Source of the DNA: a virus
Lineage: Duplodnaviria; Heunggongvirae; Uroviricota; Caudoviricetes
Direction: 5' to 3' (one strand)
IMG/VR virus record: IMGVR_UViG_3300042348_001285
Length of the DNA: 64,000 nucleotides
In this document: piece after piece, positions 9,426 to 45,423 of the stretch
Numbering within the stretch: the stretch's first letter is position 1
Layout: every line of letters begins with the position of its first letter
The notes under the pieces: model-generated
What the model was told of the DNA's origin: nothing
Database searches by the model: none
The model's input: the letters and a program-made list of their open reading frames with translations, nothing else
Made by a program: the position numbers and the translations under genes

Positions 9426-9867
9426 GATGCGTTCCGGTTCGGGACCCCCATATTGTATGCCATGGGTGGCCAGGTGTCAAGGTGCCGGGTTGTTTGTTTG
9501 CATTTCGTAATAATGCTAGTGGGAGTAATACAAACGTACTAGCTTACCCGGTGAGTTTGCGCTTCGGGTGTCGCGGTCCGGTGAGTTTGCGCTTCGGGTG
9601 TCGCGGTCCGGTGAGTTTGCCGGTCGGTGAGTTTGCCGGTCGGTGAGTTAACTATCGGGTGCGATGTTACAAAACTTTACATACCGGGGCAGGGAGTTTA
9701 ACCGTAATGAGTTAGCCACCCGGTGACAACACAAAACTTAACATTCCGGTGGTAGCTTCACGGCAATGAGTTAGCCACTCGGTGTCAGCACACCATGGCA
9801 GGGGGCATGTGAAACCAGCATAAAGAAAGGCCGCCGATTGGCAGCCCTTTACTATGCGGACTTTCGT

Positions 9868-13662: not shown

Positions 13663-14281
13663 TTGCCGTTTGGTGCGGTACCCTGTAATTATAGCATGGT
13701 GCAGGGGCAATTGCGGGGTGCCGTTTGATGGCGTTTGGTAACAATGCCGTTCGAGTAGTAGGTTTGTACTAGCGGACTTCGGCGGCAATTTTCGGTTCGA
13801 ACTATCGGGTGTGATGTTACAAAACTTAACATTCCGATGGCAGTTTGACGGCAATGAGTTTACCACAGGAGTAATACAAACGTACTAGCTGACTCCGGCG
13901 GCAATTTGCGGTTGAGAGTGGTACTAACGTACTACCTAACCCGGTGTCAAAATGGGGGCCACGAGGATCGGACTCGTCTTCTATTTGTTATGAGCAAATT
14001 GCATTCACCAGATTGCTAGACCCCCGTGAGTATTACATTACCCTGGCAAGTAAGTTCCGGTCACTATTCCTAGCAGCCATGGCAACCAGCACAGGCAAGC
14101 AAGCCCCTGTAGGCATGGTGCGTCCCAACCGTGCAATGAGTTTGGGGTCCTCACCAGGGAGAACGACCGGTTTCCATGGGCCCGGTGGAAAGGTGGTTTC
14201 GGTGGTCATAAGCCTGGGGGGTGACAGGTTGATTATAGCATAGGGGCCAACACAGTGTCAACCCCTCGGCAACCCCGACCA

Positions 14282-14869: not shown

Positions 14870-15065
14870 TTTTTCTCCGGGGTGTCCGTCTATTGTAGCA
14901 TAGTGCTGGGGGGGGGGTTGGGGTTTGCGGGTCGGTGTTGTGCTTCGGGTGTTAGGCTTCGGTGAGGTTGCCGGTCGGTGAGTTTGCAGTCCGGTAAGTT
15001 GACTATCGGGTGCGATGTTACAAAACTTAACATTTCATTGGCATCGAGTTTGTGGTATGAGTTAC

Positions 15066-15372
15066 TTAAATGTAATTATAGGGTGCTTTTTGCGAGTAAT
15101 GTAGAATTCCGGGGTGTGTTTTCGGAGTAATGTAGAACGCCCCAAAATAAAAACCCAAAATTCAATCCTTGAGATCGATTGCAGGGGAACGGAGTTACTC
15201 CTAAAAAAATTAAAAATTTTAGGACCTTTTCAAAAACAGCATGAAAAATTCTATATTTGAATGCAAATTCTGCACCCTACTACTATAATCGCATATAAAT
15301 TATTTAATAGAAGACTCTTATCAATGAGTTATGATACATAAGAGTTCCTTATCAATAGGTAATAGCAGTAAA
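15066..15372. repeat. complex intergenic module, copy A (iterons, hairpins, AT-rich tail with IHF-like site)
   Basis: Carries 2x 'GGGTGCTTTTTGCGAGTAATGTAGAA'-type iterons, the hairpin TCCTAAAA-N10-TTTTAGGA, and TTGAAT...TATAAT. Related to the copies at 17.1, 19.9, 21.5, 22.2, 25.2, 25.7 and 29.4 kb. Confidence 0.8.
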
Positions 15373-15430
15373 GCAACAAAAAAAAGGGAGGGTTACCCCT
15401 ACCCATTCTTTGCGCTAAGTTTATCGCCAA

Positions 15431-15781
15431 TCAATCATTCTTGGCACCCCATGCACGCAACCGGCTAATCGCCTCCTCTATGCTGCTGGCATTAGACTTA
15501 CGGAATTTGGCCGTTTTGCTATAGGAGAACATTTCGATCTTCCCACCCCCGACGGAAAACATTGCGTAGCGGGAATTGTGGAAAATTCCGTTAATCCATT
15601 CTTCCTTGGGGTCTAGGGATACCTTGACGATTAGGGAAGCGTTTTGCTCACCGCCAAGTGTGGACCTTTGCACAGAAGAAACCGGGAAGGTGGCATTAAG
15701 GGCAGCAGCCAGGGTCTCACGGTCGGCTTCGGTCGGGATGAAGGCGGTTGCAAGGGTTGCGGTAGTTGCCGGGGCCATCAT
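15431..15781 (-). CDS. hypothetical protein (116 aa, begins MMAPATTAT)
   Basis: Cassette at 15790-15820. Confidence 0.5.
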   Translation of the reverse strand: MMAPATTATLATAFIPTEADRETLAAALNATFPVSSVQRSTLGGEQNASLIVKVSLDPKEEWINGIFHNSRYAMFSVGGGKIEMFSYSKTAKFRKSNASSIEEAISRLRAWGAKND

Positions 15782-15940
15782 TGCCGGTGGTTGGTTGGCT
15801 TCGTAATTATAGCACAGGGCCGAGGGTACTGTGGGTGATGTTACAAGGAGTGACAACAGGCACGGCAGGGTGCCGTCACGGCCTGCAACAACAGGCAAGG
15901 CAGGGGCTACCGGCAGGCAACCCCCCCCCCTGGCCATCAC

Positions 15941-16237
15941 TCACACAGCCGGAACCTGGCAGCCGGCAGCGATCACCCCTTTGCCTTCCATCTCATCCAG
16001 CAGGGTGACGTAAGCGGCAGCGATGGCGTTCTTGGTGGCACGGCCGGTTAGCTCAACCCGGAAACTCCGGCAGCTGAAGGGTAGGCATGTGAACGTGCTG
16101 TAGCCGGTGCTGGTCTCTACAGTGCCCTCACTGGCAGTGACCCTGGCAGGGCGGCCATTGGGTTTGTAGTAGGAGACTTGGAAAACCTTGCCGGGCTGGT
16201 CAAGGCTGTTCACGTAGAAGGAATTGGGGGTTGCCAT
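15941..16237 (-). CDS. hypothetical protein (98 aa, begins MATPNS)
   Basis: Cassette at 16245-16285. Confidence 0.5.
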   Translation of the reverse strand: MATPNSFYVNSLDQPGKVFQVSYYKPNGRPARVTASEGTVETSTGYSTFTCLPFSCRSFRVELTGRATKNAIAAAYVTLLDEMEGKGVIAAGCQVPAV

Positions 16238-16326
16238 TGCGGTTCGGGGTGGTTGCCGTTGGTTGGTTGCTCTGTGATTATAGAATGGAATGGAAGGGGG
16301 CGCAAGCCCCCCTCAACTCCTAGCAA

Positions 16327-16578
16327 TCACACAGCAGGCAGGTAAATTTCCAATGTGTAGGTAACCTCAGCCTCATTATAGGCAGCCAGCGTATCGGCTA
16401 GTTCCCCAAGCGTCACATAGTCGCTGTAGTCTCCATCGTCAATCAGGAATTCCATCTCATCGCCTTCGGCGGGTTCTTCCGATAGGTAGGGGGCACAGAA
16501 GGGGGCCAGTCCGGTGGGCATGGCGACGGGCAATGCAGCGAGGATTTCAGCTAGGGTAGGGGCGGTTGCGGTAGCCAT
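16327..16578 (-). CDS. small acidic cassette ORF (83 aa, begins MATATAPT)
   Basis: Cassette at 16585-16620. Confidence 0.5.
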   Translation of the reverse strand: MATATAPTLAEILAALPVAMPTGLAPFCAPYLSEEPAEGDEMEFLIDDGDYSDYVTLGELADTLAAYNEAEVTYTLEIYLPAV

Positions 16579-16771
16579 GGTGGTCTCGGTGGGTGACGAC
16601 AGGTAAATTGTAGCACACGGGGTCCTGGAACGCAAGGCCCCCCCTACTATTAGTTGCCAACTTTCGGTAGTATAGTCCCATACGTCAAATAGCCATACCT
16701 TTCGATGCCGTACTTGTGCAAAATATGCACACTGGACCATGGTACACCTTGTCCCCAAGTACCTGACTGAC

Positions 16772-16888
16772 TCATACGCTCAAAAGCACATTCAACGCTG
16801 TTACGCAGCCAGGAATGATCAATACGGGATGCTGATGCCGCTTGGTTGCTGCGGTAGTTGCGGTACTTGGGGGGGTGGGGAATGCCAT
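16772..16888 (-). CDS. tiny cassette ORF (38 aa, MAFPTPPSTATTAATKRHQHPVLIIPG...)
   Basis: Cassette at 16895-16925. The remainder of track ORF 16772..17197 is read-through. Confidence 0.3.
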   Translation of the reverse strand: MAFPTPPSTATTAATKRHQHPVLIIPGCVTALNVLLSV

Positions 16889-17027
16889 TGTTGCCGGTGG
16901 TTGGTTGGCTCCGTAATTATAGCACATTGCCTCGGGGGTTGGGGCCCCGGATTGCTGACTCCCAAGGTGTGGTGGACAGTTTGTAAACTGTCTATTTGAC
17001 TTCGTGAGTTTGACTTTTAGGGTTTGA

Positions 17028-17318
17028 TTCTGGGGTGTGTTTTCGGGGTCAATGTGGAATCTCAGAGTGCTTTTTGCAGGTAATGCAGAAACCCCAATTT
17101 GAAAAGTTCGAAAGTCAACCGCTGAGATCGACTGCAGGGGAACGGAGTTACTCCTAAAAAAATTAAAAATTTTAGGACCTACTGAAAAACCATCCAAAAA
17201 ATTCTACATTTGAATGCAAATTCTGCACCCTACTATCATATACTCGCGTAAAAATTATTTAATAGAAGACTCTTATCTAAATGTCTAGACAGATAAGTAA
17301 TTCTTATCAATCTAATCC
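17028..17318. repeat. complex intergenic module, copy B
   Basis: Same iteron, hairpin and AT-rich architecture as copy A. Confidence 0.8.
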
Positions 17319-17449
17319 CCCATCAAACCGCAATGTTGTGGGCTATTCGAGGATGCTAACCGGAGTCTCACACCAAATAGCAAAGGGGGCGATGCCGTAG
17401 CACCAACCCCCAAACATTAAACTAAGGTCAATCTAAGGCCAAACCAAGG

Positions 17450-17638
17450 TCAAACATAGAGACGAACCTGAGCCAGGAAGCACTCCCGGTGTTGCTTGCG
17501 AAGGATGGTGCGGATTCGCTTAGCCTGCTCAAGACTCCATACCCGGTTGCCCCCTACGGGCTCAGACCATGGTTTGCGGGTGATTTCCTGAACAGTGTAG
17601 AAGATTCGGGTTTTCTTGGTTGCGGTTGCGGTGGCCAT
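17450..17638 (-). CDS. small basic cassette ORF (62 aa, begins MATATATKK)
   Basis: Cassette at 17645-17690. Confidence 0.5.
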   Translation of the reverse strand: MATATATKKTRIFYTVQEITRKPWSEPVGGNRVWSLEQAKRIRTILRKQHRECFLAQVRLYV

Positions 17639-17809
17639 TGGTGCGTGTCGGTTGGTTGGTGACAAGTGAATTGTAGCACGGTCGCCGGGGGCTGTCAATG
17701 CTTTTGGGGTAGGGACCCGGCTTCCAAATTTTCGGAGGGGGCGCAAGCCCCTTGCCATCTGGTCATCATTCCCTAGGTATCAATGCCCTTGCAGTAGGAT
17801 CCAGTTCTC

Positions 17810-17880
17810 AAAATTTTCGGAGGGGGCGTTAGCCCCCGACTGGTTCGGGCGCCGTAGGCGGTAACCCGAACCCAATCCCA
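17810..17880. repeat. 71-bp GC-rich structured element, copy 1 (second copy at 39816..39885)
   Basis: Near-identical 'AATTTTCGGAGGGGGCGTTAGCCCCCGACTGGTTCGGGCGCCGTAGGCGGTAACCCGAACCCAATCCCA'. It holds hairpin GGGGGC-GTTA-GCCCCC and a perfect 8-bp stem GGTTCGGG/CCCGAACC that encloses CGCC-GTAG-GCGG. Confidence 0.75.
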
Positions 17881-17930
17881 GGGCATCAATCCCAGGGCAT
17901 CAATCCCAGGGCATCAATCCCATGGGCAAA
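17876..17930. repeat. microsatellite (gggcatcaatccca)x4 directly after the structured element
   Basis: Direct tandem reading. Confidence 0.85.
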
Positions 17931-18012
17931 GTTGCCAGTGGCTGATAACAATGGTAGTATAACAAAAAAGGCCAGGAAGCACAAGCCCCCTGACCATGGT
18001 AGCTAATCCCTA

Positions 18013-18315
18013 TCAGGAACACTGATTTAATGGGGTAGGATCAAAGTGAATATCCCGCTCGATGCGTAGTCCAGCTGGGCCCCGAGTAGCTTCTAGGTCC
18101 CTGAGGTCGAAGTACCCAAGTTCCCGCTCCAGACCGATAACCAACCCAAAGCATAACCCTGTCGCAGGATCCATCTCCGTGAGATACCATGTCCAGTTTG
18201 ACCAGGGGGTGAAAAATTTGGTATAGGCGATTGCTGCCATACCTTTACCGTCCTGTGCGTACAGGGCAGGAACCTTGGTGGCGATTGCCTTGGTTAGTAG
18301 CTTGGTGTTGGCCAT
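18013..18315 (-). CDS. hypothetical protein (100 aa, begins MANT)
   Basis: Cassette at 18320-18360. Confidence 0.5.
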   Translation of the reverse strand: MANTKLLTKAIATKVPALYAQDGKGMAAIAYTKFFTPWSNWTWYLTEMDPATGLCFGLVIGLERELGYFDLRDLEATRGPAGLRIERDIHFDPTPLNQCS

Positions 18316-18695
18316 GGTTGCCGGTGGGTGACGACAGGGTAATCATAGCACAGGCAGGAAGGGGGGGCGCAAGCCCCTTGCCCCCCGGTTTTGTCCCTCA
18401 GTCTGGAATTGATTGGCCGTAGCGGAGGGGTTCGGCTTCTTTCATTACCTAATAGCTGCATGAATGTTTAATAGCCCCATGGTAAACCACGCTCACATTC
18501 TCATATATTCTTTGTTGAAAACAAAGACTTGGCATCATTCATGCAGGTTTTCGGCTCTTACTTCACCTCATTTAACTCTCGCTGAGACAATGCGAGTAGC
18601 CCCGTTGACTTTGCGGTTTGGGTGGTGGTGGTGGGTGACTTCGGTAGTATAGCACTAATGGGAAGGGAACGCAAGCCCCCCCGACATGCCAATAA

Positions 18696-18869
18696 TCACT
18701 TGCTATCGGTCACTTCCCAAGCAGTGATTTCTTGGTCTACCAAGTTGCCTTGACCGGGATGCGGAAAGAAGTTGTAGTCCATATCGCACAGGGCATCTTC
18801 CATGTTCACACCCTCTTTAAGGTCAAAGGTGACCTTCACAGTGACGGTGGCGGTGACTTTGCGGCTCAT
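18696..18869 (-). CDS. small cassette ORF (57 aa) behind two tandem cassettes
   Basis: Two promoter cassettes at 18895-18910 and 18945-18970 have no ORF between them. The Met sits at 18869. Confidence 0.4.
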   Translation of the reverse strand: MSRKVTATVTVKVTFDLKEGVNMEDALCDMDYNFFPHPGQGNLVDQEITAWEVTDSK

Positions 18870-18999
18870 GGCGGTTCGGTGGTTGGTGACAGGGTAATCA
18901 TAGCACGGGCAGGCAGGGGGGCAAGCCCCCTCAACCGCCCGACAAGTTGACTTCGGTATTATAGCACAGGTAGGCAGGCAGGTAGGCAGGCAGGCAGGG

Positions 19000-19248
19000 T
19001 CACTCCTCCCACAGTGGGCCAGCCGACATTGCGCCAACGGGGTCACCTAAGTTTTCTGCGCTAACCGGGACGGCGGCAACATCATAGCTGGGGTGGATTT
19101 CGCCGGCTGCATTACATACCCAGCAATCGACCGTCCAAAAGCGGCCCGTGTAAATCGGGTTATAGCAATCATACTCTGGACGGTTTTCATCGTGCGGAGC
19201 ATCAGCCTGATAGATCAAGCGAGCGGAAACGGTTTTAGCGTCAGCCAT
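19000..19248 (-). CDS. small Cys/Trp-containing cassette ORF (82 aa, begins MADAKT)
   Basis: A variant cassette with a TAATAAT -10 box and a C-run leader lies at 19250-19290. Confidence 0.45.
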   Translation of the reverse strand: MADAKTVSARLIYQADAPHDENRPEYDCYNPIYTGRFWTVDCWVCNAAGEIHPSYDVAAVPVSAENLGDPVGAMSAGPLWEE

Positions 19249-19291
19249 GGTTGGGGGGGGGTGGCGGTTGGTTGGTGTTGTCGAGTAATTA

Positions 19292-19582
19292 TTAGCGTTT
19301 GGCAAGTTTGCCAGTGGCCAGCATTCCATCACCTTGGCCGCGACAATTAAAAACACGACCATCAGGCAAGCGCACAACAAAGGAATACATCCTTGTTGCG
19401 TAAGGGCCGGTACGCCATGATCCAGTTACGGCACCAGTCCCTATTTGATTACCATGCCAATCCGTAAAGGTCCAATGAGAAGTCTGGAAGAAACCTTTTA
19501 CGTTTGACCCATTGGCTGGACGCTTGGCGTAACAAGCAATGCTGTCATTAGCCTTACAATTGGTTTCAACTAAAGTGACCAT
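19292..19582 (-). CDS. hypothetical protein (96 aa)
   Basis: Cassette at 19630-19660. Confidence 0.45.
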   Translation of the reverse strand: MVTLVETNCKANDSIACYAKRPANGSNVKGFFQTSHWTFTDWHGNQIGTGAVTGSWRTGPYATRMYSFVVRLPDGRVFNCRGQGDGMLATGKLAKR

Positions 19583-19744
19583 TGCATAATCCGGCTATCT
19601 GCCGGTGGGAGGAGGGGGCCGGGTTTGTCCCGATGGGTGAATTATAGCACATTGTCGGTGGTGCTGGGGGTCCAGGATTGTTGACTCCTGGGGTGTGGTG
19701 GACAGTTTGTAAACTGTCTATTTGCGTTGGGAGTTATGACTCTG

Positions 19745-20060
19745 GGGTTGGGTGCCGAGGGTGCATTTTGTGAGTAATGTGGAACCTTAGGGTGCGTTTT
19801 CAGGGCAATGTGGAAACTCTGAAATCAAAAACCGAAAATTCAATCCCTGAGATCCGTTGCAGGGCAACGGAGTTACTCCTAAAATTTTTGAATTTTTTAG
19901 GACCTAGTGAAAAATGAGTAAGAAAATTCTACATTTGAATGCATATTCTGCACCCTACTATCATATACTCGCGTAAAAATTATTTATAGTACACTCTTAT
20001 CTAAATATCTAAACAGATAAGAAATTCTTATCCATAAGCACAATCAATGAGTTAAGAACC
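19745..20060. repeat. complex intergenic module, copy C
   Basis: Iterons 'GGGTGCATTTTGTGAGTAATGTGGAA' and 'GGGTGCGTTTTCAGGGCAATGTGGAA'. Also the hairpins, a palindrome CTTATCT-N12-AGATAAG, and 'TTATCCATA', which is DnaA-box-like. Confidence 0.8.
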
Positions 20061-20065
20061 AGGAG

Positions 20066-20093
20066 ACAAAAAAAGGGGGGGCAACCCCCCCCC
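20066..20093 (-). terminator. Rho-independent terminator G7-CAA-C9 plus U7
   Basis: Minus strand reads GGGGGGGGGUUGCCCCCCC followed by UUUUUUU, just after the stop at 20099. Confidence 0.8.
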
Positions 20094-20098
20094 GACCA

Positions 20099-20530
20099 TC
20101 ACAGCTCCTGAACTTCAACCCCGATGCGATCTGCTGCAGCAAGCAGAAGTTCCCGGTAGGAGTCGAACTTGTTGGGAGTTGGCACCCAGAACCTCAAGAC
20201 ACCTGGATCACTAGGAATACCACTGGACCACCCCTGGTAATCGGGAGTTGGGATACCGTCGCTTACTACAACGATTCCATCAGTTGGGTTGTAAGAAATA
20301 TTCGTCTTCACCATTCGGCCAGCAATATAATCGCCACGCAATTCGATAAAGCCATCATTGGCATAAGTAGGGTAATTGTGAACTTGGTCCAGGATTGTAA
20401 GCTCATTGAGACCACGAACAGCCTGAAGGAAACCCATACCAGTTTCAGTGCCACATGCTTCATAAGCAATTAGCAGGTATGTTGCAGCGAGTTTGGCAGT
20501 TTGTGACGGGTCGGATACTTGGAATTTCAT
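20099..20530 (-). CDS. hypothetical protein (143 aa)
   Basis: Intact ORF. Confidence 0.5.
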   Translation of the reverse strand: MKFQVSDPSQTAKLAATYLLIAYEACGTETGMGFLQAVRGLNELTILDQVHNYPTYANDGFIELRGDYIAGRMVKTNISYNPTDGIVVVSDGIPTPDYQGWSSGIPSDPGVLRFWVPTPNKFDSYRELLLAAADRIGVEVQEL

Positions 20531-20591
20531 GGAGTTTGAGAGTGTGTGGTTACAGAGTAGATGGGCCCAGATCGCAACCCCTGACTAACAA

Positions 20592-20789
20592 TCAAGTAGC
20601 CGCCAACGCAGCTTCAGCCTCGACAATACGGGCAGCTTTGTTGTGTGCCATTTCAGCCTGGAGTGCCTTAAGGAGGTCCGTAGATGCTTTCAAGTCCTCA
20701 GCACCGATGACTCCTTGATTGTAAAGGTCGATAGCACCCCCTGCGGCGAAGTGGGAGCGATAGGCTCGTTGGTAACGTGTTTGGGCCAT
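20592..20789 (-). CDS. small helical cassette ORF (65 aa, begins MAQTRYQRAYR)
   Basis: Cassette at 20795-20840. Confidence 0.45.
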   Translation of the reverse strand: MAQTRYQRAYRSHFAAGGAIDLYNQGVIGAEDLKASTDLLKALQAEMAHNKAARIVEAEAALAAT

Positions 20790-20915
20790 TTTGCTGTGGG
20801 GCGGTTGCCCTCGGTTGGTTGTTTGGTGATGGGTGAATTGTAGCATGGTGCCACTGGTTCCGTCAACCCCCTGGATTCTGCGGCAGGAAGGGGACCCGGC
20901 AGGCAAGGACTCCCC

Positions 20916-21116
20916 TCAGTAAGCCCCCAGGGCAATAGGAGAGCTGAAGGTACCATTCCCGTACTGGAAGATAGCATAGAGCTTACGCCCCCTGTGGCGC
21001 TTCACTACATAACGTGTACGGGATTCTTTGATACCACCAAAGCATTCAGCTTCAAACTGTCGGGTACTTACGACGTTGTAGGTGATGCTGTCGATTGTGA
21101 GGGTTGCTGGGGTCAT
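20916..21116 (-). CDS. small cassette ORF (66 aa)
   Basis: Cassette at 21125-21160. Confidence 0.45.
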   Translation of the reverse strand: MTPATLTIDSITYNVVSTRQFEAECFGGIKESRTRYVVKRHRGRKLYAIFQYGNGTFSSPIALGAY

Positions 21117-21439
21117 CGTTGCCGTTTGGTGCGGTTGACTCTGAAATTATAGCACGGTTGCTGGGTCCTGTCGATGCCTTCGTATTGTTGCCTATGGGTC
21201 GTGGTCTCATTGGTCTCAGTTGGGTATCAAGGTGAAATTGCCGGGCAGTGAGTTTGCCGGTCGGTGAGTTGACTATCGGGTGCGGTGTTACAAAACTTAA
21301 CATTTTGGCGACAATTCGCGGCCCAGTGAGTTTACCATCGGGGACAACACAAAACTTAACATTTTATTGTCAATGAGTTTGATGCAATAGTTCCCTATTA
21401 TGGGGGAATTGTGGCTACTTTTTTATTCATTGCCCATTG

Positions 21440-21716
21440 TAATGAGTTTGATTTCGGTTTGACTTTAGGTGTTATGGCACTAGGGTTGAGTGCTAGGGGT
21501 GCATTTTGCAAGTAATGTAGAAACCCCAAAATCAAAAACCCGAAAGTCAATCCCTGAGATCCATTGCAGCGGAACGGAGTTACTCCTAAAAAAATCAAAA
21601 ATTTTAGGACCTAGATGAAATCCATCCAAAAAATTCTACATTTGAATGCATATTATGCACCCTGGGGCTCTTTATATACACTTTTTCGCGAATATATGAA
21701 TAATAAGTGTTTATCT
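21440..21716. repeat. complex intergenic module, copy D (subfamily with 'atgcaccctggggctctttatatacactttttcgcgaatatatg')
   Basis: Shares its core with the other copies but has a distinct right arm, which copy F also has. Confidence 0.8.
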
Positions 21717-21724
21717 TATGTTGT

Positions 21725-22050
21725 TGGACCCGAGTAGTAAACAACTGGGCGTGGTTCCACCAGTCTTAGTTAAGTATCGCAATGAGTCTACATCGAGTAG
21801 TTTACAGTTGGCATCAGTCCCAACAGTCTCGTTTCAGTCCCACAATGAGACCCACCCAAGTAGTAAACAACTGGGATACAGTCCCAACAGTCTCGTTTCA
21901 GTCCCACAATGAGACCCACCCAAGTAGTAAACAACTGGGATACAGTCCCAACAGTCTCGTTTCAGTCCCACAATGAGACCCACCCAAGTAGTAAACAACT
22001 GGGATACGGTCTCAACAGTTTCGTTTCAGTCCCATAATGAGACCACACCT
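21725..22050. repeat. tandem array of a 64-bp unit (about 5 units, 3 near-perfect)
   Basis: Unit 'cccaacagtctcgtttcagtcccacaatgagacccacccaagtagtaaacaactgggatacagt'. The array is sandwiched between modules D and E. Confidence 0.85.
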
Positions 22051-22054
22051 CAGG

Positions 22055-22445
22055 GTAAACATGGCAGGTATTTTCGGAGTTAATGTGGAACCTTGGGGTG
22101 CTTTTTGCCAGCAATGTAGAATACCAGGGTGCGTTTTCCGGTTAATGCAGAAACCACAAAATCAAAAAACCAAAATCCATTCCTTGAAATCGACTGCAGG
22201 GGAACGGAGTTACTTCTAAAATTTTTGAATTTTTTAGGACCTAGTTGAAAACAGCATGAAAAATTCTACATTTGAATGCAAATTCTGCACCCTACTATCA
22301 TATACTCGCGTAAAAATTATTTATAGTACACTCTTATCTAAATATCCATAATCAATAAGTTATCCTTATCTATGTACCAACCAATAGGTAATAGCAGTAA
22401 AGCAACAAAAAAGGGAGGGCCACCTTTCGGCAGCCCCCTTATCAG
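22055..22445. repeat. complex intergenic module, copy E (three iterons)
   Basis: Three 29-31-bp iterons are followed by the conserved hairpins and the AT-rich tail. Confidence 0.8.
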
Positions 22446-22539
22446 TAAATATTTATACTTACGGGGTTAAATTAGACCCCTGAGCCAACGACCCCGGAGC
22501 CAACAACCCCGGAGTCAACAACCCCGGCAGCCTTCACCC

Positions 22540-22863
22540 TCAATAGTCAGCAAAGTCATATCTATCGAAAGGTACTGAATCCCGCTTAATTTCAGATTCG
22601 ACAATTTTGCGTGATTCGCTGTCATAATGGCGCACAATGACAGACTCGGTGGCAAAACCCCAATTTTCATCAGGTTGCCGGGTATAATGGACCCTGGCAT
22701 CATCCAGGCTGGCCCATGCGAATTTTTCCTGAGAGCCGACTACATTCTCCACCGCATCCATGGTTTGGCAGAGGGTAGTGCCATTGGCTCCCCTAACAGT
22801 ATAACCAGCAATGCGCTTGCCAACTTCATCGGTCGTGACGTAGTAGTAGTCGATGGTTGCCAT
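22540..22863 (-). CDS. hypothetical protein (107 aa, begins MATIDYYY)
   Basis: Cassette at 22870-22900. Confidence 0.5.
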   Translation of the reverse strand: MATIDYYYVTTDEVGKRIAGYTVRGANGTTLCQTMDAVENVVGSQEKFAWASLDDARVHYTRQPDENWGFATESVIVRHYDSESRKIVESEIKRDSVPFDRYDFADY

Positions 22864-23007
22864 TGTTGCGGTGCTGGTTGGTTGACTTCGGTATTATAGC
22901 ACAAGGGGCCAGGGTGCGGGGGGGTGATGTTACAAGGGGTAACAACAGGCACGGCAAGGGGCCACCGGATGGCAACCCCCCCCCCCAGCCATCAGACCGT
23001 AATGGCA

Positions 23008-23193
23008 TCAACTCAAACAGACGACAGATTCCCCTACCCGGCCTTCACAATTTCCACAATCGTCTGCCTGTTGTTCGGTGATTTCTGAGGTAGAGCAACA
23101 ATCAACATCAGCTAAACCTCCCCAATTCTCATAAAACATAACCTCAAGATCAGGTCCGGCAAGAAGTTCCTTAGCGAGTTCGTGTGCTTTCAT
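23008..23193 (-). CDS. small acidic Cys-rich cassette ORF (61 aa)
   Basis: Cassette at 23225-23260. Met at 23193. Confidence 0.4.
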   Translation of the reverse strand: MKAHELAKELLAGPDLEVMFYENWGGLADVDCCSTSEITEQQADDCGNCEGRVGESVVCLS

Positions 23194-23323
23194 TGTTGCT
23201 AGCGTAGATGGTCGGAAAGTTGATAACGATGGTAGTATAGCACAGATGGTTAGGGGGCCGTGGTTGCCGTTATGGTTGGTGACGCTTCGTAACGACAGGC
23301 ACGGCAAGTTGCCGGGGGCAGGG

Positions 23324-23566
23324 TCAGCCTGCGTTAAAACTTGCTAGCATTACTCCCTGACGGGTTCCGGGAGCAGCGGTTCCAATTAGCTCAACTGTTA
23401 CTTGGTCTGGGCTATTGCACCATGTTGAAGAATAGGGGGGGTAATCCCAATCACGATCCTCAGGGTGAATGTTCCTGGCCTCTTCCTCATCTTTGGCGCA
23501 AACTATGGCGCTGTCGTAAGTGTCGTACCCTCTGTTTAAGGTTTGGCTGATTTTGTAGAGTTTCAT
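23324..23566 (-). CDS. small cassette ORF (80 aa)
   Basis: Cassette at 23590-23620. Confidence 0.45.
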   Translation of the reverse strand: MKLYKISQTLNRGYDTYDSAIVCAKDEEEARNIHPEDRDWDYPPYSSTWCNSPDQVTVELIGTAAPGTRQGVMLASFNAG

Positions 23567-23730
23567 TGTTGCTTGCGTTTTGGTTGGTGGACTTCGGTAC
23601 TATAGCACAAGGAGGTTAGGGTTACAAGGGGAAACAACAGGCACGGCAAGTTGCCGATGGGTTTTGGGTTTTGTTGCATTTCGCAACAACAGGCAAGGAA
23701 GGGCCACCGGCAGGCAACCCCCCCCCAAGA

Positions 23731-24000
23731 TCATGCCATGAACTTAGCAATAGCCTCTTCGGCATCGGCACCATCGGCACCATGATTTACCATAAACTCC
23801 CACATAAGGTTAGTATCACCATCGAATCGCATCAGAAGGGAATCCAACAGTTCATCTTGACTGATACCACCAGAGGCATTCTGAAGCTCTGACATCCTGC
23901 TGTCCATGGCTGCATTCCTAAGCTCATCAAGGCTCATCGAATCGACATCACGTTGGCAATGGGCCTCGGCGATCTTACGAATCAAGGATTGGTCGATCAT
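23731..24000 (-). CDS. small acidic cassette ORF (89 aa)
   Basis: Cassette at 24010-24045. Confidence 0.45.
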   Translation of the reverse strand: MIDQSLIRKIAEAHCQRDVDSMSLDELRNAAMDSRMSELQNASGGISQDELLDSLLMRFDGDTNLMWEFMVNHGADGADAEEAIAKFMA

Positions 24001-24126
24001 GGTTGCGTGTGCGGTTGGCTGACTTCGGTATTATAGCATGGATAGGCAGGGTGCGAGGGATGTTACAGGGGGGTAACAACAGGCGCGGCAAGGGGCCAGG
24101 GTTCACAACCCCGACCCCCAGGACAG

Positions 24127-24501
24127 TCAACCAAAAGCCACAATGGCCTTTAGACTGGTGCGCCACGTTCCCGGCAGCTTCTCACCACGACGACCTACGA
24201 TCACGGGCAATTCCCCGACCATCTCAACCACGGTAACAATCTCAAATACCTGCAAGGTCGCAGCCAGCCAGGTTCCAAACCAGCGAGTCCGACCCGTGGC
24301 CTTGGCAATGTAACGGCAGCCATGGGGGCCTTCCAAGGCAAACTCTCCTTCCTCAAGGCAAAGATCATGGGGCGCATCAGCCAGGACATCCCAGTGCCCC
24401 CACCAGCCTTTACGGACGCCACCAGGGGCCTTCTCGCAGGGTTCAGCGGTGTGGGAACCGGTGCGGTTGATGGGTGAGGTGGCGGCGGTTGCGAAGGCCA
24501 T
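24127..24501 (-). CDS. hypothetical protein (124 aa, begins MAFATAATS)
   Basis: Cassette at 24510-24540. Confidence 0.45.
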   Translation of the reverse strand: MAFATAATSPINRTGSHTAEPCEKAPGGVRKGWWGHWDVLADAPHDLCLEEGEFALEGPHGCRYIAKATGRTRWFGTWLAATLQVFEIVTVVEMVGELPVIVGRRGEKLPGTWRTSLKAIVAFG

Positions 24502-24593
24502 TTGCCGGGGGGTGCGATACCTTGAAATTATAGCATGTTGCCAATGGGGTCGGGGTGCATCCCAACCACAAAACTGCCTACTAGCAACAAAAC

Positions 24594-24929
24594 TTAACCC
24601 ATAATGCCCCCAGGCCAACGTCCTCCCGGCGGGGTGCGCTCTGATGGGGATAGTTCGGGTGTTTCATCATAATAGCTAGGACGCAACTTGGCGAGGCGCT
24701 CTGCGTCGGAGACGCATTGGCAGTGTGGATTGTGCCCATTTTCCGCCATATAATTAGCGCCGCGCTTTGTTCTGGATGGTCCGATAACTGCCATGTAGTA
24801 CGGGGTATTGGCTTCGGTAGGGGTAACTACCGATTTGAAAACTTCCCGGTTACCTTGGTCGTATAACAAACCCACATAGAATTTTGCCCGTTGGGGTGTG
24901 TTAGTGGTTGAGGGGGTTGCGGTAGCCAT
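24594..24929 (-). CDS. hypothetical protein (111 aa, begins MATATPSTT)
   Basis: Cassette at 24935-24965. Confidence 0.5.
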   Translation of the reverse strand: MATATPSTTNTPQRAKFYVGLLYDQGNREVFKSVVTPTEANTPYYMAVIGPSRTKRGANYMAENGHNPHCQCVSDAERLAKLRPSYYDETPELSPSERTPPGGRWPGGIMG

Positions 24930-25039
24930 CGTTGCGGTGTCGGTTGGTTGGCTTCGTAATTATAGCACATGGCCGGGTGTGGATGCGGTTCGGCATGTTG
25001 ACCCCGGGGTGTGGTGGACAGTTTGTTAAGTGTCTATTT

Positions 25040-25330
25040 GCGTTGGGAGTTTGACTTTAGGGGTTTGATTCCGGGGTGTATTTTCGGAGTTAATGTGGAA
25101 CCTTAGGGTGCGTTTTCAGGGCAATGTGGAAACTCTGAAATCAAAAACCCGAAAGTCAATCCCTGAGATCCATTGCAGGGGAACGGAGTTACTCCTAAAA
25201 AAATTAAAAATTTTAGGACCTAGTTGAAAACCATCCAAAAAATTCTACATTTGAATGCATATTATGCACCCTGGGGTCTTTATATATATACTTTTTCGCG
25301 AATATATGTATAATAAGTGTTTACCTTATG
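25040..25330. repeat. complex intergenic module, copy F
   Basis: Same subfamily as copy D. Confidence 0.8.
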
Positions 25331-25537
25331 TTGTTGGTGAGTTGAATAGTTGACGACTGGGTGTGATCTCGTCGGTCTCAGTTGAGTATCGGAATGAGTT
25401 CACATCGAGTAGTTTACAGTTGGGATACAGTCTCGTTTCAGCCCCACAATAAGACTCATCCAAATAGTCAACAACTAGGGTACGGTCTCAACAGTCTCAC
25501 TTCAATCTCACAATGAGATCACACTTCAAGAGCAAAC
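25331..25537. repeat. degenerate copies of the 64-bp unit between modules F and G
   Basis: Reads '...gatacagtctcgtttcagccccacaataagactcatccaaatagtcaacaactagggtacggtctcaacagtctcac...'. Confidence 0.6.
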
Positions 25538-25865
25538 AGATGGGTGCATTTTAGGAGTAATGTGGAATCTCAGGGTGCATTTTAGGAGTAATGTAGAATG
25601 CCCCAAATCGAAAATCGAAAATCCATTCCTTGAAATCGACTGCAGGGGAACGGAGTTACTCCTAAAAAAATTAAAAATTTTAGGACCTAGTTGAAAACCA
25701 TCCAAAAAATTCTACATTTGAATGCATATTCTGCACCCTACTACTATAATCGCATATAAATTATTTAATAGAAGACTCTTATCAATGAGTTACGATATAT
25801 AAGAGTTCCTTATCAATAGGTAATAGCAGTAAGGCAACAAAAAAAGGGGGGGTAATCACCCTAAG
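25538..25865. repeat. complex intergenic module, copy G
   Basis: Two near-identical iterons 'GGGTGCATTTTAGGAGTAATGT(G/A)GAAT'. The right arm is nearly identical to copy A. Confidence 0.8.
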
Positions 25866-25890
25866 GCAATCCCTCCCCTAAAAACAGCAC

Positions 25891-26076
25891 TTATGCCCAA
25901 ATAGTATCAACCTGTGCCTGATACCCTTTCTGCTTCATCGCTTCGGCAATCCGCTGGGCCACGTTCCGATCATGGTAATCGGCCCTGGTGGTATAACCCG
26001 AAGCCCCAGAACCAGTGGCAATCAAACCAGTGGCAATCGGACTGGGGGCAATGGTGACACGGTGTAGTTGGGCCAT
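25891..26076 (-). CDS. small cassette ORF (61 aa)
   Basis: Cassette at 26085-26115. Confidence 0.45.
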   Translation of the reverse strand: MAQLHRVTIAPSPIATGLIATGSGASGYTTRADYHDRNVAQRIAEAMKQKGYQAQVDTIWA

Positions 26077-26151
26077 GGTGCGGTTTGGTGTGGTACCACG
26101 TAATTATAGCATTATGCCGTGGCATTGGCAAGCATGGGGCCGGGGGGAACG

Positions 26152-26526
26152 TCAACCCCGCCCATACTGGCGAACCCTCTCCAAATAGGTCCCCCAAACC
26201 GACGGATCCATGGCACCTGCCGTTGTCTTAAAGTGATGGGAGAAAAACGTAATGGCAAGCTCCATATTGCGCCTACCAACAGGATTAGCAGAATGAATGA
26301 CCACAGCCGGTGGAATAAACCCACCATCAAAACCATTCTCATACACAATTTGCTCAATCCACTTGCAAACATCCATGCCAGTTCCCCTAGCGTCATCCCC
26401 GAGATCATGATCCAAGGATACAACTTCGACATTGCCAGTCTTCAGCAATTCGATAACCTCATCAGGCCAATAGCAACGGACCCATCCATCAGGGGTAGGC
26501 CTGATATCATCGAGAAATACTTTCAT
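26152..26526 (-). CDS. receiver-fold-like small protein (CPR/REC-like signature LDDxR...DHDLG)
   Basis: 'MKVFLDDIRPTPDGW...VVSLDHDLGDD'. The start overlaps the stop of the cassette mini-ORF (ATGA). Confidence 0.35.
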   Translation of the reverse strand: MKVFLDDIRPTPDGWVRCYWPDEVIELLKTGNVEVVSLDHDLGDDARGTGMDVCKWIEQIVYENGFDGGFIPPAVVIHSANPVGRRNMELAITFFSHHFKTTAGAMDPSVWGTYLERVRQYGRG

Positions 26527-26564
26527 TGCCTTGGGGTTAGGTAGACTGTGGGCGTGGTTGCCAT
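26523..26564 (-). CDS. cassette-encoded mini-ORF (13 aa, MATTPTVYLTPRQ), translationally coupled to 26152..26526
   Basis: ATG GCC ACC in the conserved cassette position. Its stop TGA overlaps the ATG of the next gene. Confidence 0.3.
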   Translation of the reverse strand: MATTPTVYLTPRQ

Positions 26565-26886
26565 TGGGGAGGTCCGGTGGGTTACGGCAGGGGAATCATA
26601 GCATGGCCCTGGCAGGTTAGTTGGTGGCCCCGTAATTATAGCACAGGGGGGCCAGGCTACGGGTGCCGTTACATTCCGTAACAACAGGTACGGCAAGGAG
26701 TCACTGGATGGCAACCCCTGTAAAGAATTGGCCAGGTTGTGGGGTTATGCTTTCGCTCCTGAAGGGTAGCCAGGCGAAGAAGGGCAGCCCTGCGGCTGAT
26801 AGTCCTACTTCCATTTCCCACTATTTGCCTTCACGTCTACCTGTATTTTGGGTTGTGACCCTATTGTAGCATGGGCCGAGGCAGAG

Positions 26887-27081
26887 TCAACCCTCAGGGT
26901 CCTTGGGGCTGCTGTCATCAAGTAAAGCCATTGCGACTATGGATCCAATGAAAAGTAGAAACCATAACGTACTCAATATAGATAATAGCCCTAGGTTTCC
27001 CTTAGCTACCCAATAAGCAGCAGAGAATATGTGACATTGGGTGATAATAAACTTGGTGTTACGTTTGAGGTTTGACAGCAT
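26887..27081 (-). CDS. small membrane cassette ORF (64 aa)
   Basis: Hydrophobic 'LLSILSTLWFLLFIGSIVAMALL'. Confidence 0.4.
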   Translation of the reverse strand: MLSNLKRNTKFIITQCHIFSAAYWVAKGNLGLLSILSTLWFLLFIGSIVAMALLDDSSPKDPEG

Positions 27082-27208
27082 GGTGCGGTTGGGGGTTGGC
27101 GACAGGTGTATTATACCACAGGTCCGGCAGACAGTGGAAAGGGGCCAATGCCAACGGCACCAACCCCCCAAGCAATCGGCCAATGCCAACAGCAGCCAGC
27201 GGCACCAA

Positions 27209-27463
27209 TCAGCTAGCCACTGCAAGCAGCCGATCAGCCACCCTGCCTTTCGCAGTACGCTTCCCATCGAGATAATACAAGGTATAGACCCGCCCCGGCT
27301 TCACACTGGGGGTGACTGTGATGGCTAGGGCCTTGCCGTTGATGCGGATGGCAGTTTCGGCCTTGTTGCCAGCAGCAGCAGCAGCCACGGTATCGGCTTC
27401 GATGGTGGCGAGACGGGTAGCCAGAGTCTCAGGCTTACGGATGGTGAGAGGGGGAGTAGCCAT
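27209..27463 (-). CDS. hypothetical protein (84 aa, begins MATPPLT)
   Basis: Lies downstream of three tandem consensus promoters. Confidence 0.5.
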   Translation of the reverse strand: MATPPLTIRKPETLATRLATIEADTVAAAAAGNKAETAIRINGKALAITVTPSVKPGRVYTLYYLDGKRTAKGRVADRLLAVAS

Positions 27464-27499
27464 GGTTGTGGGTGGGTTGTGTTGTGGGGTGAATCCCTG

Positions 27500-27672
27500 G
27501 GACCTTGCTATTATAGGGTAGGCAATGGATGTTGTCAATACCCGGTTAATGGTGGCGGTGGTCTGGACCTTGCCATTATAGGCGAGACAATAGGTGTTGT
27601 CAATACCCGGTTAATGGTGGGGGCATCGGGAATAGAGCCACTATAGGCAAGGCAATGTGGGGTGCCAATACC
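27500..27672 (-). promoter_or_regulatory. three tandem near-consensus sigma70 promoters (TTGACA-N17-TATAAT) with a 65-bp period
   Basis: Reverse complement of each unit reads 'GTATTGACAACATCCATTGCCTACCCTATAATAGC'. The third copy reads TTGGCA...TATAGT. Confidence 0.7.
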
Positions 27673-28102
27673 AGACGGCAGGATCCCTCAGGGTCACCAT
27701 ATTATGGCATATTGCCCGTGTTATTGCAACCCCTTGGCCCCGGTTTATACCTTGGCTTGTTCGCCCCCGCCACGATGTGTTAAGTTTTGTAACGATCTGG
27801 GGGGGGGTAATTAAGTTTTGTTACGATTCGGAGTTTGTTACCCCGTGGCATCGACTCGGAGTTTGCCATCCGGGGCGTCTACCCATCTCCAAGGCATTGA
27901 CAGCTGCCGGAATCCACGCTATAATACGCAGACAACCAAACGAGGGGCGAGGTAGCCCTGCTGACGAAAAAGGTCGCCACGGAACCTGCCTGCTTATAGT
28001 TATTACCGGATAGTAAAAAAAGGGGGGGGGTTAGCCCCGAGTTTATCCCAGAGTCATAACCCTGGAGTCATAACCCCGAAGCCATAACCCCCAATTCCAA
28101 AG

Positions 28103-28576
28103 TCATACCGCAGCCAACTGCCGACCCCTGGAATAGAACTGCTTACAGCCATACTTGGCCGCAATTTCATCCAAACTACCCGGATTGGAGCGGCTCCGGC
28201 CCAGCCCAGCAGGCTTCCAGAACCAGCATTTCCGGCCACTATGCCAGCGGCACCCTAGCGCCTTCAGGTCTTCCTTAACGGGCTTGGTATCACCCGTGAC
28301 CCATACCCATAACCCAATCAGGTTAATGTCCAGGTTAGGAATCTTAAGCAATTCTGCAATCTGATCCATGATAGCCTGCTCGGTTTTTTCCGTATAGCGA
28401 TAGGTGCGCCCATCGTCCTCTTGACCGTTGCAGCTTGCGAGAGCGGCATGGTAGGCAGCATTAAGGGCCTTCATGGTTTCCAGATCGCCACCAAGATCAG
28501 GGTGGTGCTTGCGAGCCAGATCACGATAGGTGCCTTTAATGGTTTCGACAGTGGTGAGGCCAGTGAAGAATGTCAT
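28103..28576 (-). CDS. J-domain (DnaJ-like) protein
   Basis: 'YRDLARKHHPDLGGD' carries the HPD motif. Confidence 0.7.
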   Translation of the reverse strand: MTFFTGLTTVETIKGTYRDLARKHHPDLGGDLETMKALNAAYHAALASCNGQEDDGRTYRYTEKTEQAIMDQIAELLKIPNLDINLIGLWVWVTGDTKPVKEDLKALGCRWHSGRKCWFWKPAGLGRSRSNPGSLDEIAAKYGCKQFYSRGRQLAAV

Positions 28577-28721
28577 TGCCGGTTCCAGGTGGTGTGTGGG
28601 AACGATGTTAGTGTAGCATGGTTGCCGGTGGGTCGTCAACCCCCCTTTTTTAGGGGAAAGGTTAAAACCGCTACCTGCTGACTCTGGAATTATAGCACAC
28701 TGCACTAAAGGCTGTGGCCCC

Positions 28722-28991
28722 TCAAGGGTAGGTAAATTTTTTGTGCAGAACAAGGGCGCATTTGGAACCCTGTGCCTTCAATGTAAGATAGTATCCGTCA
28801 TCTTTTCTGGAGCAACGAATACCTGTCCACCCGAATATCTTCTTTGCCTTTTGTACAATTTGTCTATTTGTCATACCGCCACAAGCAAACTCATCATATC
28901 TATGGCATTGGCTCACATCTTTGCCAACAAGAGTAACCTCCTCTACGCAAGCCATTTCTTTGGTTCTAAAAACAGATGGGGATGTACTCAT
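28722..28991 (-). CDS. small Cys-containing ORF (89 aa) behind two tandem cassettes
   Basis: Cassettes at 29010-29050 and 29085-29110. Confidence 0.4.
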   Translation of the reverse strand: MSTSPSVFRTKEMACVEEVTLVGKDVSQCHRYDEFACGGMTNRQIVQKAKKIFGWTGIRCSRKDDGYYLTLKAQGSKCALVLHKKFTYP

Positions 28992-29261
28992 GGTGGGACC
29001 CGGTGCGTTTAGTTGGTGGGTGACTTTGGTAGTGTAGCATGGGGCCAGGGGCAATGTCAACACCCTGGTTTTGGTCCCTTGCTTGCTGACCCATGAATTA
29101 TAGCATGTCCGGGGGCCAACTGTGGATGGCCGGGAGTTAATGCTCATGGGCCGACACATTGCCGAAGGGATTGACAAGGCTGGGGGGAGTCGCCCTATAA
29201 TGGGCAAACAATCAGAGAAGGGGCCTTGCCCACAGGTAATAGGTTATGCCACGGGGCTATG

Positions 29262-29545
29262 CCATGGTGCGTTTTGCCGTTAATGTAGAATTTTGGGGTG
29301 TGTTTTCGGGGTTAATGTGGAATCGTCAAAATCAAAAACCCAATTTTCATTTCCCCAAATCCATTGCAAGGGAACGGAGTTACTCCTAAAATTTTTGAAT
29401 TTTTTAGGACCTAATGAAAAACGATCCAAAAAATTCTACATTTGAATGCAAATTCTGCACCCTACTATCATATATTCGCGAAAAATTTATTTATAGTACA
29501 CTCTTATCTAAATACCTATATAGATAAGTTTTGTTTATCAATGAG
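29262..29545. repeat. complex intergenic module, copy H
   Basis: Iterons 'GGTGCGTTTTGCCGTTAATGTAGAAT' and 'GGGGTGTGTTTTCGGGGTTAATGTGGAAT', plus the hairpins and the AT-rich tail. Confidence 0.8.
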
Positions 29546-39499: not shown

Positions 39500-39795
39500 T
39501 GTGGGGTTGGTGAGTATTTATACCTAGTGCTTGGCTAGGATGAGAGCCACTAGAAGTCGTTGACTCCTATAAGTTGGTGAGTATTTATACCTAGTGCTGA
39601 TTAGGTTAGGGGCCGTCTAGTGTTGTTGACTCCTGGGGCCCGTAAGTATTTATACTTAGTGCTGGTTAGGTTAGGGGCCGTTTTGTGTCGTTGACTCCTG
39701 AGGGGTCCGTAAGTATTTATACTCACTGCCGGCTAAGTCGGAGTCCCCCCGGTGTCGTTGGCTCCACACAAGTCAGTAAGTATTTATACTCACTG
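39500..39795. repeat. tandem array of about 65 bp, five units, each carrying AAGTATTTATAC (TATAAATA on the minus strand)
   Basis: Units begin at about 39512, 39578, 39642, 39708 and 39772. The inter-unit segments are mutually similar, so this is not CRISPR. Confidence 0.85.
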
Positions 39796-39885: not shown

Positions 39886-39927
39886 GGCAATCAACCCTCA
39901 GGCAACTAACCCATCGATCACCAACCC

Positions 39928-39990
39928 ATCGGCAACCATCGGCAACCATCGGCAACCATCGGCAACCATCGGCAACCATCGGCAACCACC
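39928..39990. repeat. microsatellite (ggcaaccatc)x6
   Basis: Direct tandem reading. It sits directly after the structured element, as the microsatellite does at copy 1. Confidence 0.85.
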
Positions 39991-45290: not shown

Positions 45291-45423
45291 TGTATTTGCA
45301 GTGGGGGGGGCTGGGGGCTGCGTCAATTACTTATGTGTCCTTGTTAAATGGAGAAATTGCCAACTGAATCGCAAAGTGCTGCAATAAGTGCGGGCACATA
45401 TGAAATATAAATAACCCCCCTTG

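Follow-up and report, generated by a model that had tools for sequence, protein, structure and literature searches.

A lineage-specific, orientation-locked, non-coding boundary module in the putative early region of an uncultured freshwater jumbo phage

What is a complex non-coding sequence of about 300 bp doing, eight times over, among the small genes of a phage? The question is raised by a stretch of 64,000 nucleotides (IMG/VR record IMGVR_UViG_3300042348_001285; hereafter the window), which is a piece of the genome of an uncultured freshwater jumbo phage with a related IMG/VR contig of 279 kb. An earlier sequence-only reading of this DNA had recorded the eight copies and offered four explanations for them: replication origins or partition sites, genes for structured non-coding RNAs (ncRNAs), promoter or enhancer hubs, and mobile elements of the kind known as miniature inverted-repeat transposable elements (MITEs). 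We find that the module is a non-coding boundary element, specific to this lineage and locked in orientation. It occupies the gap that separates the end of a minus-strand early cassette from the promoter of the next one, usually just past the terminator of the former.

Exactly eight modules of about 300 bp, A to H, are present, all of them non-coding, intergenic and on the plus strand, opposite to the genes (Table 1). A repeat search, a MAFFT alignment and an nhmmer profile all recovered these copies, in agreement with the positions first given for them, and the profile revealed no relic copy, solo copy or solo tail in the rest of the window, even at E ≤ 10. Chance is excluded, for it would account for 0.01 occurrences of the 20-mer GAACGGAGTTACTYCTAAAA, of which there are 8, and for 0.00 of the iteron pattern, of which there are 14. 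The right-hand ends originally assigned to the modules approximately match ours, but the left ends had been set 0-30 nt too far to the left.

The five elements that had been described for the module, namely direct iterons, a CCCTG/CAGGG stem with a short palindrome, an A/T hairpin, a promoter-like stretch and an AT-rich tail, do follow one another in a fixed order, and the proposed division into two right-arm subfamilies (A, B, C, E, G and H versus D and F) is equally real; we refer to the two kinds of tail as ND (non-D/F) and D/F. Each module opens with two or three bipartite 26-nt iterons in direct orientation, phased every 31-32 bp. This period is kept in 36 of 38 intervals across the roughly 43 distinct copies that the window, lake metagenomes and IMG/VR relatives provide together. 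The fourth element (TTCTACATT..GCACCC) stands where it was expected, but the sequence-only reading had overlooked that it is an inverted iteron (reverse complement GGGTGCAGAATTTGCATTCAAATGTAGAA), whose internal spacer exceeds that of the direct iterons by 3 bp. It lies 111 ± 1 bp from the last direct iteron in 40 of 43 copies, and the ten nucleotides between the arms of TCCTAAAA-N10-TTTTAGGA are kept in 42 of 43. The adjoining palindrome, previously given as GGAGT-A-ACTCC, in fact reads GGAGT-T-ACTCC and has 3 nt in common with the TCCTAAAA arm. The stretch from the direct iterons to the inverted iteron contains phased A-tracts, and AA/TT dinucleotides recur every 10-10.5 bp, significantly in four of the eight cores and as a trend in the remaining ones, which fits intrinsically bent DNA. 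Together, the 31-32-bp period, the fixed spacings and the periodicity of these four cores support the earlier description of iteron-like sites of protein-binding character on a bent, AT-rich core.

In the tail, the conserved feature is CTTAT-N16/17-ATAAG-N5-YYTAT, with the N5 kept in all 25 matched tails; its three boxes, CTTATC, GATAAG and CTTATC, run forward, reverse and forward. Strings resembling IHF sites, DnaA boxes and TATAAATA had also been listed for the tail, and they are indeed present in some copies, but they are not conserved module-wide. We considered TATAAATA as a T4-like late promoter and rejected it: the string occurs only in C, E and H, is broken by an inserted A in A, B and G, and is absent from the D/F tails. 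A TTGAAT -35 box followed by TATCAT or TATAAT had likewise been proposed, and a TTGAAT-N18-TAYYAT site is found in the six non-D/F copies of the window, but D and F lack it and its score does not exceed 9 of 12. This is the sole recurrent promoter-like site, present in every ND-type copy with a score of 8-9 of 12, and a sigma70 promoter scan of both strands of 36 copies returned nothing above 9 of 12. Inspection by eye revealed no small conserved open reading frame (ORF) in the core, where stop codons and frames differ among copies.

The pattern of variation among copies bears on whether the module acts as DNA or as RNA. Although 103 of 200 core columns are polymorphic, the conserved columns are clustered (P = 0.0002), and the invariant boxes include GAACGGAGTTAC, TCCTAAAA, TTTTAGGACCT, ACATTTGA, TGCACCC and the iteron half-sites. 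The sequence between these boxes turns over while its length is retained; palindrome arms carry rare single changes only, spacers have several alleles, and the R of AATGTRGAA varies independently in direct and inverted copies. Nearly invariant arms around hypervariable spacers of fixed length look like protein half-sites, whereas RNA stems would be expected to carry some compensatory changes. The two loop alleles of TCCTAAAA-N10-TTTTAGGA were also considered as flip-flop inversions; this was rejected, as the alleles have a common central TTGAA with A-to-T changes on both sides of it.

The inverted repeats could alternatively belong to a structured ncRNA gene, on either strand, whose ends would pair (iteron with inverted iteron) around internal hairpins. 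Single copies fold better than their shuffles, with minimum-free-energy z scores of about -1 to -3.5; minus-strand hexamers resembling a -10 box were seen by eye in tails of both classes, at a distance of 7 nt from GGGTGC, and the forward-reverse-forward boxes of the tail could form alternative hairpins. The folding advantage is, however, alike on both strands, which is what DNA palindromes give. The module had no Rfam match at the gathering threshold and nothing meaningful at E ≤ 10, and RNAalifold consensus energies for 40 distinct copies were weak (-17.5 kcal/mol on the plus strand, -15.1 on the minus strand), with covariation terms of only -0.5 and -0.3. For a structure drawn by hand from three helices (iteron 2 with the inverted iteron, CCCTG with CAGGG, and TCCTAAAA with TTTTAGGA), all covariation measures were at or below those of shuffled controls, 473-487 of 500 shuffles scoring at least as high. 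A hairpin within each iteron, formed by pairing of its spacer with the variable pentamer, looked plausible by eye, but permutation gave no support for it in internal iterons (z +0.7 and -0.2); in first iterons there was a weak trend on the plus strand (z -1.9, a value reached by 7 of 300 permutations). No intrinsic terminator follows the core on either strand, and the loop of GGAGT-T-ACTCC is too small for a 5-bp hairpin. A resemblance to the ToxI type III antitoxin repeat found no support in Rfam and was dropped. We regard an ncRNA gene as unlikely; this reading is unsupported rather than disproved, as stems that never vary are uninformative either way. Given the variation pattern, the fixed spacings and the absent covariation, our interpretation is that the binding sites of the module form an array that works at the level of DNA.

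We asked where these putative arrays lie relative to transcription units. All eight fall within 5-31 kb of the window, a region that has been rearranged among relatives and in which about 60 small minus-strand ORFs are densely packed and GC content outside the AT-rich modules is mostly 0.50-0.61, as against 0.40-0.50 elsewhere. Most of these ORFs apparently have their own near-consensus sigma70 promoter (TTGACA-N17-TGnTATAAT), in many cases with an extended -10 (TGTGCTATAAT on the minus strand); polyG/polyC terminators are common, and a repeat search revealed further intergenic repeat families. The region bears the signature of a hyperplastic early region, similar to those with promoter-early stem-loop (PeSL) cassettes; such regions have been described for T4-type phages (PMC2839356). 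Near-consensus sigma70 promoters also lie 100-300 nt to the left of the modules, in flanks common to only some copies. The flank of B, C and F leads to the next minus-strand sigma70-type promoter, about 105 nt from the first iteron. In this flank, the hairpin GACAGTTTGTAAACTGTC (at about 16985-17003, 19712-19730 and 25028-25046) is followed by TATTTG on the plus strand only, and is terminator-like for plus-strand transcription. The flank of A and D consists of 16-bp CGGTGAGTTTGC-type tandem repeats plus the palindrome ACAAAACTTAACAT, motifs that are found again at 9548-9792, away from any module.

On the right, a strong terminator of the upstream gene had been said to adjoin every module. We found this to be clear at A, C, E and G, but B has a weak terminator-like hairpin, H has none, and D and F are followed by tandem repeats instead. 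Across the whole set, about 24 of 31 distinct ND tails have a terminator, as judged by eye from the alignment. The behavior of D and F reflects their place in double modules, D + E and F + G, of which they form the left halves; the layout is a core, a D/F tail, tandem repeats of 63-64 bp, a second core, an ND tail and a terminator. Wherever the locus of an inspected relative extends far enough, a D/F-type copy likewise has another core after it (by eye). The 63-64-bp repeats were seen only between the two cores of double modules. Their units are up to 100% identical, contain internal inverted repeats (GTCTC..GAGAC and CCCAAGT..ACTGGG) and vary in number among the relatives that we retrieved.

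To describe the distribution of the module, we combined searches of several sequence collections. A metagenome scan recovered 19 loci, on freshwater lake contigs, and all copies within each locus share one strand. In the 279-kb relative, which is syntenic with the window at 75-95% identity, every copy maps to the region corresponding to 10-31 kb of the window. Two further motif scans of IMG/VR returned only this contig and one close relative of 13.8 kb; some 40 other single iteron hits were dismissed as chance matches. Megablast of 14-30 kb of the window against 50,697 phage records gave zero matches, and BLAST searches for near and distant similarity, with region or module as query, found none in these records or in 72,556 plasmids. 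Bacterial and archaeal genomes, one for each of 185,579 species, gave 0 hits in two independent motif scans.

These results bear directly on the proposal of a MITE-like transposable element, derived from host or phage, whose terminal inverted repeats would be the iteron-like sequences. The module does have imperfect inverted repeats of 26-29 nt around an AT-rich center, and its appearance recalls Correia and BOX elements. Wide occurrence in host chromosomes, which the sequence-only reading had named as the mark of a host MITE, is not what the species genomes show, and a single region, with a single orientation, holds all of the copies. We saw no solo tails or empty sites and, by eye, no evident target-site duplication at A or C; conservation runs past the inverted repeat into the tail. 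In a Pfam scan of the 102 minus-strand ORFs of the window, which matched 34 families, the best 25 families were inspected and included no integrase, transposase, Rep, DnaA-like or ParA/ParB domain and no recognizable DNA-binding regulator, recombinase or initiator. The MITE reading thus fails most of its tests, and we consider it highly improbable.

Comparison of the copies with one another indicates that they recombine along their full length, and that relatives differ by insertion and deletion of whole cassettes. The four-gamete test found all four gametes in 604 of 780 pairs of 40 biallelic sites, corresponding to a minimum of exchanges (Rm) of at least 21 over 214 columns, which means that exchange is not limited to one crossover point but extends over the entire module. 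Orthologous copies differ by allele swapping, and at syntenic positions a single module in one genome may be a double one in another, the junctions lying inside the cores: B of the window is a double module in locus L001, and H is a double module in L019. L001 also contains a hybrid module, with the left flank of C and the tail of D, and lacks the 1.5-kb cassette that lies between C and D in the window. In L010, L013 and L015, cassettes adjacent to modules have been replaced. T4-type PeSLs are known to mediate cassette indels of this kind (PMC2839356, PMC4122927). Neither recombination nor a role at cassette boundaries had figured among the four original explanations.

The extent of this exchange raises the possibility that the module is a functionless or selfish repeat, spread by local unequal crossing-over and homogenized by gene conversion, with its conserved blocks as a by-product. 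Extreme mosaicism and allele swapping between orthologues fit this reading, and confinement to one region and one orientation is what tandem-type duplication predicts. A repeat of this kind is harder to reconcile with the significant clustering of conserved columns, with spacers held to ± 1 bp while their sequence turns over, and with the same architecture in all 43 distinct copies from many lake samples. On balance, we judge a functionless repeat improbable. Cassette indels bounded by modules would also be expected if these were integron- or attP-like sites for site-specific exchange of cassettes, the iterons serving as arm-type sites for a recombinase encoded elsewhere, and many sites at fixed spacing around bent DNA do resemble attP or a transposon end. 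However, the exchange points are spread over the module, the cassettes have promoters of their own, and the 25 inspected families include no recombinase; we consider dedicated site-specific exchange very unlikely.

Of the four original explanations, the regulatory hub appears the most plausible from the sequence evidence. The interpretation that we favor, tentatively, is that the module is a binding-site array marking the boundaries of early operons, in effect an enlarged PeSL-like element, which may also act as a substrate for homologous recombination. In this model, one or more sequence-specific DNA-binding proteins encoded by the phage, possibly with a host bending protein, would form a bent or looped complex on each module and in this way control transcription at the cassette boundary. 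The inverted iteron would overlap the -35 box of the weak plus-strand promoter TTGAAT-N18-TAYYAT, preceded by an A-tract and pointing back into the upstream cassette, and the iterons and bent DNA would occupy the positions of upstream activating sites relative to it. Bound protein could then switch antisense or interfering transcription, or insulate neighboring early operons from one another. An antisense promoter would explain why the modules are oriented against the genes and why the D/F halves, being internal, lack the -10 box. The 200-300 bp of shared sequence would in addition provide a substrate for homologous recombination that shuffles early cassettes, either as a by-product or as a selected trait.

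Phased iterons, an inverted copy beyond them that lies over a promoter-like site, bent A-tracts and an AT-rich tail are also the ingredients of a replication origin or of a partition (centromere) site, with the iterons as targets of an initiator or a ParB-like protein and the tail as the part that unwinds, as in iteron plasmids or in the T4 and T7 origins that combine a promoter with a DNA unwinding element. The layout recalls pSC101 and P1 oriR, and palindromes, which a parS cluster would need, are present. Cumulative GC skew peaks at 28-33 kb, next to the module cluster; the coding strand is C-rich to the left of the peak and G-rich to the right while gene orientation stays unchanged; the peak could be a replication-related switch or a compositional boundary. 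Each genome, however, has at least eight copies in 15 kb, only some copies have the DnaA-box-like and IHF-like strings, no plasmid or phage record is similar, and the 25 inspected families hold no Rep, DnaA-like, ParA/ParB, integrase or transposase domain. An origin or partition site therefore seems to us quite unlikely.

Several observations weigh against a boundary-marking array of binding sites. No DNA-binding, recombinase or initiator domain is found among the best 25 of the 34 Pfam families; the promoters within the module reach at most 9 of 12, and the D/F-type copies are without the plus-strand -10; there are no clear plus-strand terminators, and H is without a terminator on its right. 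Orientation lock and conserved blocks could arise in part from unequal crossing-over and gene conversion, and invariant stems say nothing against RNA. A bolder variant is that the module is a programmed nucleoprotein machine, with a phage-encoded protein bound to the phased iterons and the inverted iteron across bent DNA, one that would fire an antisense promoter against the upstream cassette or serve as a dedicated site of cassette exchange or initiation; such a 'cassette array' would have no homologue among known integrons, origins and operators, and we think it improbable.

Table 1. Coordinates of the modules, their flanks and other features of the 64-kb window.
Feature	Position	Strand	Remarks
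Module A, core	15081-15277	+	Two direct iterons (15081-15106, 15112-15137); A-tract region; CCTTG/CAGGG
Module A, core palindromes	15191-15201; 15199-15224	+	GGAGTTACTCC; TCCTAAAA-N10-TTTTAGGA
Module A, inverted iteron	15249-15277	+	TTGAAT inside, at 15257-15262
Module A, ND tail	15278-15404	+	TACTAT/TATAAT; CGC box; CTTAT-N16-ATAAG-N5-CTTATC (15317-15353); AATAGCAGTAAAGCAAC
Terminator of upstream gene, right of A	15377-15404	-	
Module B	17033-17411	+	Core 17033-17230; ND tail to about 17318
Weak terminator-like hairpin, right of B	17375-17411	-	
Module C	19759-20093	+	Core 19759-19955; ND tail
PolyG/polyC terminator, right of C	20066-20093	-	
Module D	21466-21731	+	Left half of double module; core 21466-21662, first iteron degenerate
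D/F-type tail of D	21663-21731	+	TTCGCGAA segment, orientation opposite to that in ND tails
63-64-bp tandem repeats, core D to core E	21732-22061	+	About 5 units
Module E	22066-22438	+	Right half of double module; core 22066-22292, three iterons, first degenerate; ND tail
Terminator, right of E	22405-22438	-	
Module F	25074-25343	+	Left half of double module; core 25074-25271; D/F-type tail 25272-25343
63-64-bp repeats, core F to core G	25344-25537	+	About 3 units
Module G	25542-25878	+	Core 25542-25738; ND tail
Terminator, right of G	25838-25878	-	
Module H	29265-29545	+	Core 29265-29462; ND tail to 29545; no terminator on right
Left flank common to B, C and F	16962-17032, 19687-19758, 25003-25073	+	Hairpin GACAGTTTGTAAACTGTC
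Left flank common to A and D	14961-15068, 21231-21397	+	
GTAAGTATAAATACTTAC near-palindrome	39515-39795, 42997, 47826, 22457	-	
GTAAGTATAAATACTTAC near-palindrome	35798, 42380, 43839, 47518	+	
tRNA-Met (CAT)	13953-14025	-	
tRNA-Ser (TGA)	62328-62412	-	The one Rfam hit at gathering threshold is this tRNA-Ser only
Full-length cysteinyl-tRNA synthetase, DnaN-type sliding clamp, CCA-adding enzyme, cREC_REC protein	43848-45326, 50293-51462, 56964-57713, 26152-26526		Positions in the order of the proteins named

All credible genes of the window are on the minus strand, and the proteins that they encode include a DnaN-type clamp, a cysteinyl-tRNA synthetase (CysRS), a dTMP kinase, a CCA-adding enzyme, a pentapeptide protein and an HNH endonuclease, as well as a cREC_REC protein, which has a cyclic-phosphate processing receiver domain. 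An identical DnaN protein is encoded on contigs of several other metagenome samples. About twelve intergenic copies of an 18-bp near-palindrome, GTAAGTATAAATACTTAC, were observed, with a T4-late-promoter-like core (TATAAATA); five of them lie within 65-67-bp tandem repeats upstream of a gene for a 368-aa protein, and one directly precedes the terminator adjoining module E. This near-palindrome could be a phage-specific promoter or operator motif. Other repeats include a 15-nt unit repeated 22.9 times within the pentapeptide-repeat gene (41845-42187) and many short tandem repeats of 9-18 nt just upstream of genes, such as CCATCGGCAA, repeated 6.3 times at 39926-39988.

Hyperplastic early regions house the fast-evolving host-takeover and anti-defence genes of large lytic phages, and how such genes are insulated, timed and exchanged is poorly understood beyond the T4-type phages. 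The window comes from a jumbo-phage lineage unrelated to T4 that has a far more elaborate and strictly conserved boundary element, and its modules mark the points at which cassettes are gained and lost in natural populations. If a specific protein does assemble on the module, it would represent a new regulatory or recombination system, and one that offers a handle on the engineering of cassette arrays in large phages; without a function, the module would be a clear case of concerted evolution of dispersed repeats in a virus.

Finally, we compared the module with known systems. The origins of iteron plasmids, such as pSC101 ori/repA and P1 oriR, have helically phased direct iterons and an inverted partial iteron over a promoter-like site. 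The module shares the phased and inverted iterons, the AT-rich bendable region and, in some copies, the DnaA- and IHF-like strings, but differs in being present in many copies per genome, in having no adjacent rep gene and no conserved host-factor boxes, and in lacking sequence similarity to any plasmid record. Like BIME/RIP of Escherichia coli, BOX of pneumococcus and Correia elements of Neisseria, it is extragenic, lies at operon ends, and is a mosaic of short palindromic units, direct and inverted and in variable internal number, around an AT-rich center potentially able to bind IHF. In bacteria, such elements are scattered across the host chromosome in either orientation, some of them being mobilized by transposase, whereas the module is confined to one region of a phage, in one orientation, and is absent from the sampled bacterial genomes. 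With the stoperators of mycobacteriophage L5 and the C1 operators of P1, it shares multiple intergenic asymmetric sites (in the module, predicted protein sites) that are oriented relative to transcription. In L5 and P1 these are single sites of 13-17 bp, whereas the module is an assembly of many boxes over 300 bp.

PeSLs, described for T4-type phages, combine a polyG/polyC stem-loop terminator, an AT-rich stretch and a sigma70-type early promoter (Arbiol et al. 2010, PMC2839356; Comeau et al. 2014, PMC4122927). In both systems, composite intergenic signals are repeated amid the small orphan early genes of a hyperplastic region, and relatives differ by cassette indels with junctions in the repeats. 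A stem-loop terminator accompanies modules A, C, E and G, and weakly B, but the strong sigma70 promoter that PeSLs carry inside the repeat is not found in the module (at most 9 of 12). PeSLs are short, whereas the module adds 200-300 bp of conserved architecture between terminator and promoter, comprising iterons in phase, one inverted iteron, the two palindromes and the triple CTTATC box, all oriented opposite to the genes. The phage itself is not T4-like, having a DnaN-type clamp and no near match in INPHARED. While its 200-bp core is without a described counterpart, the module is, in its genomic role, nearest to the PeSL.

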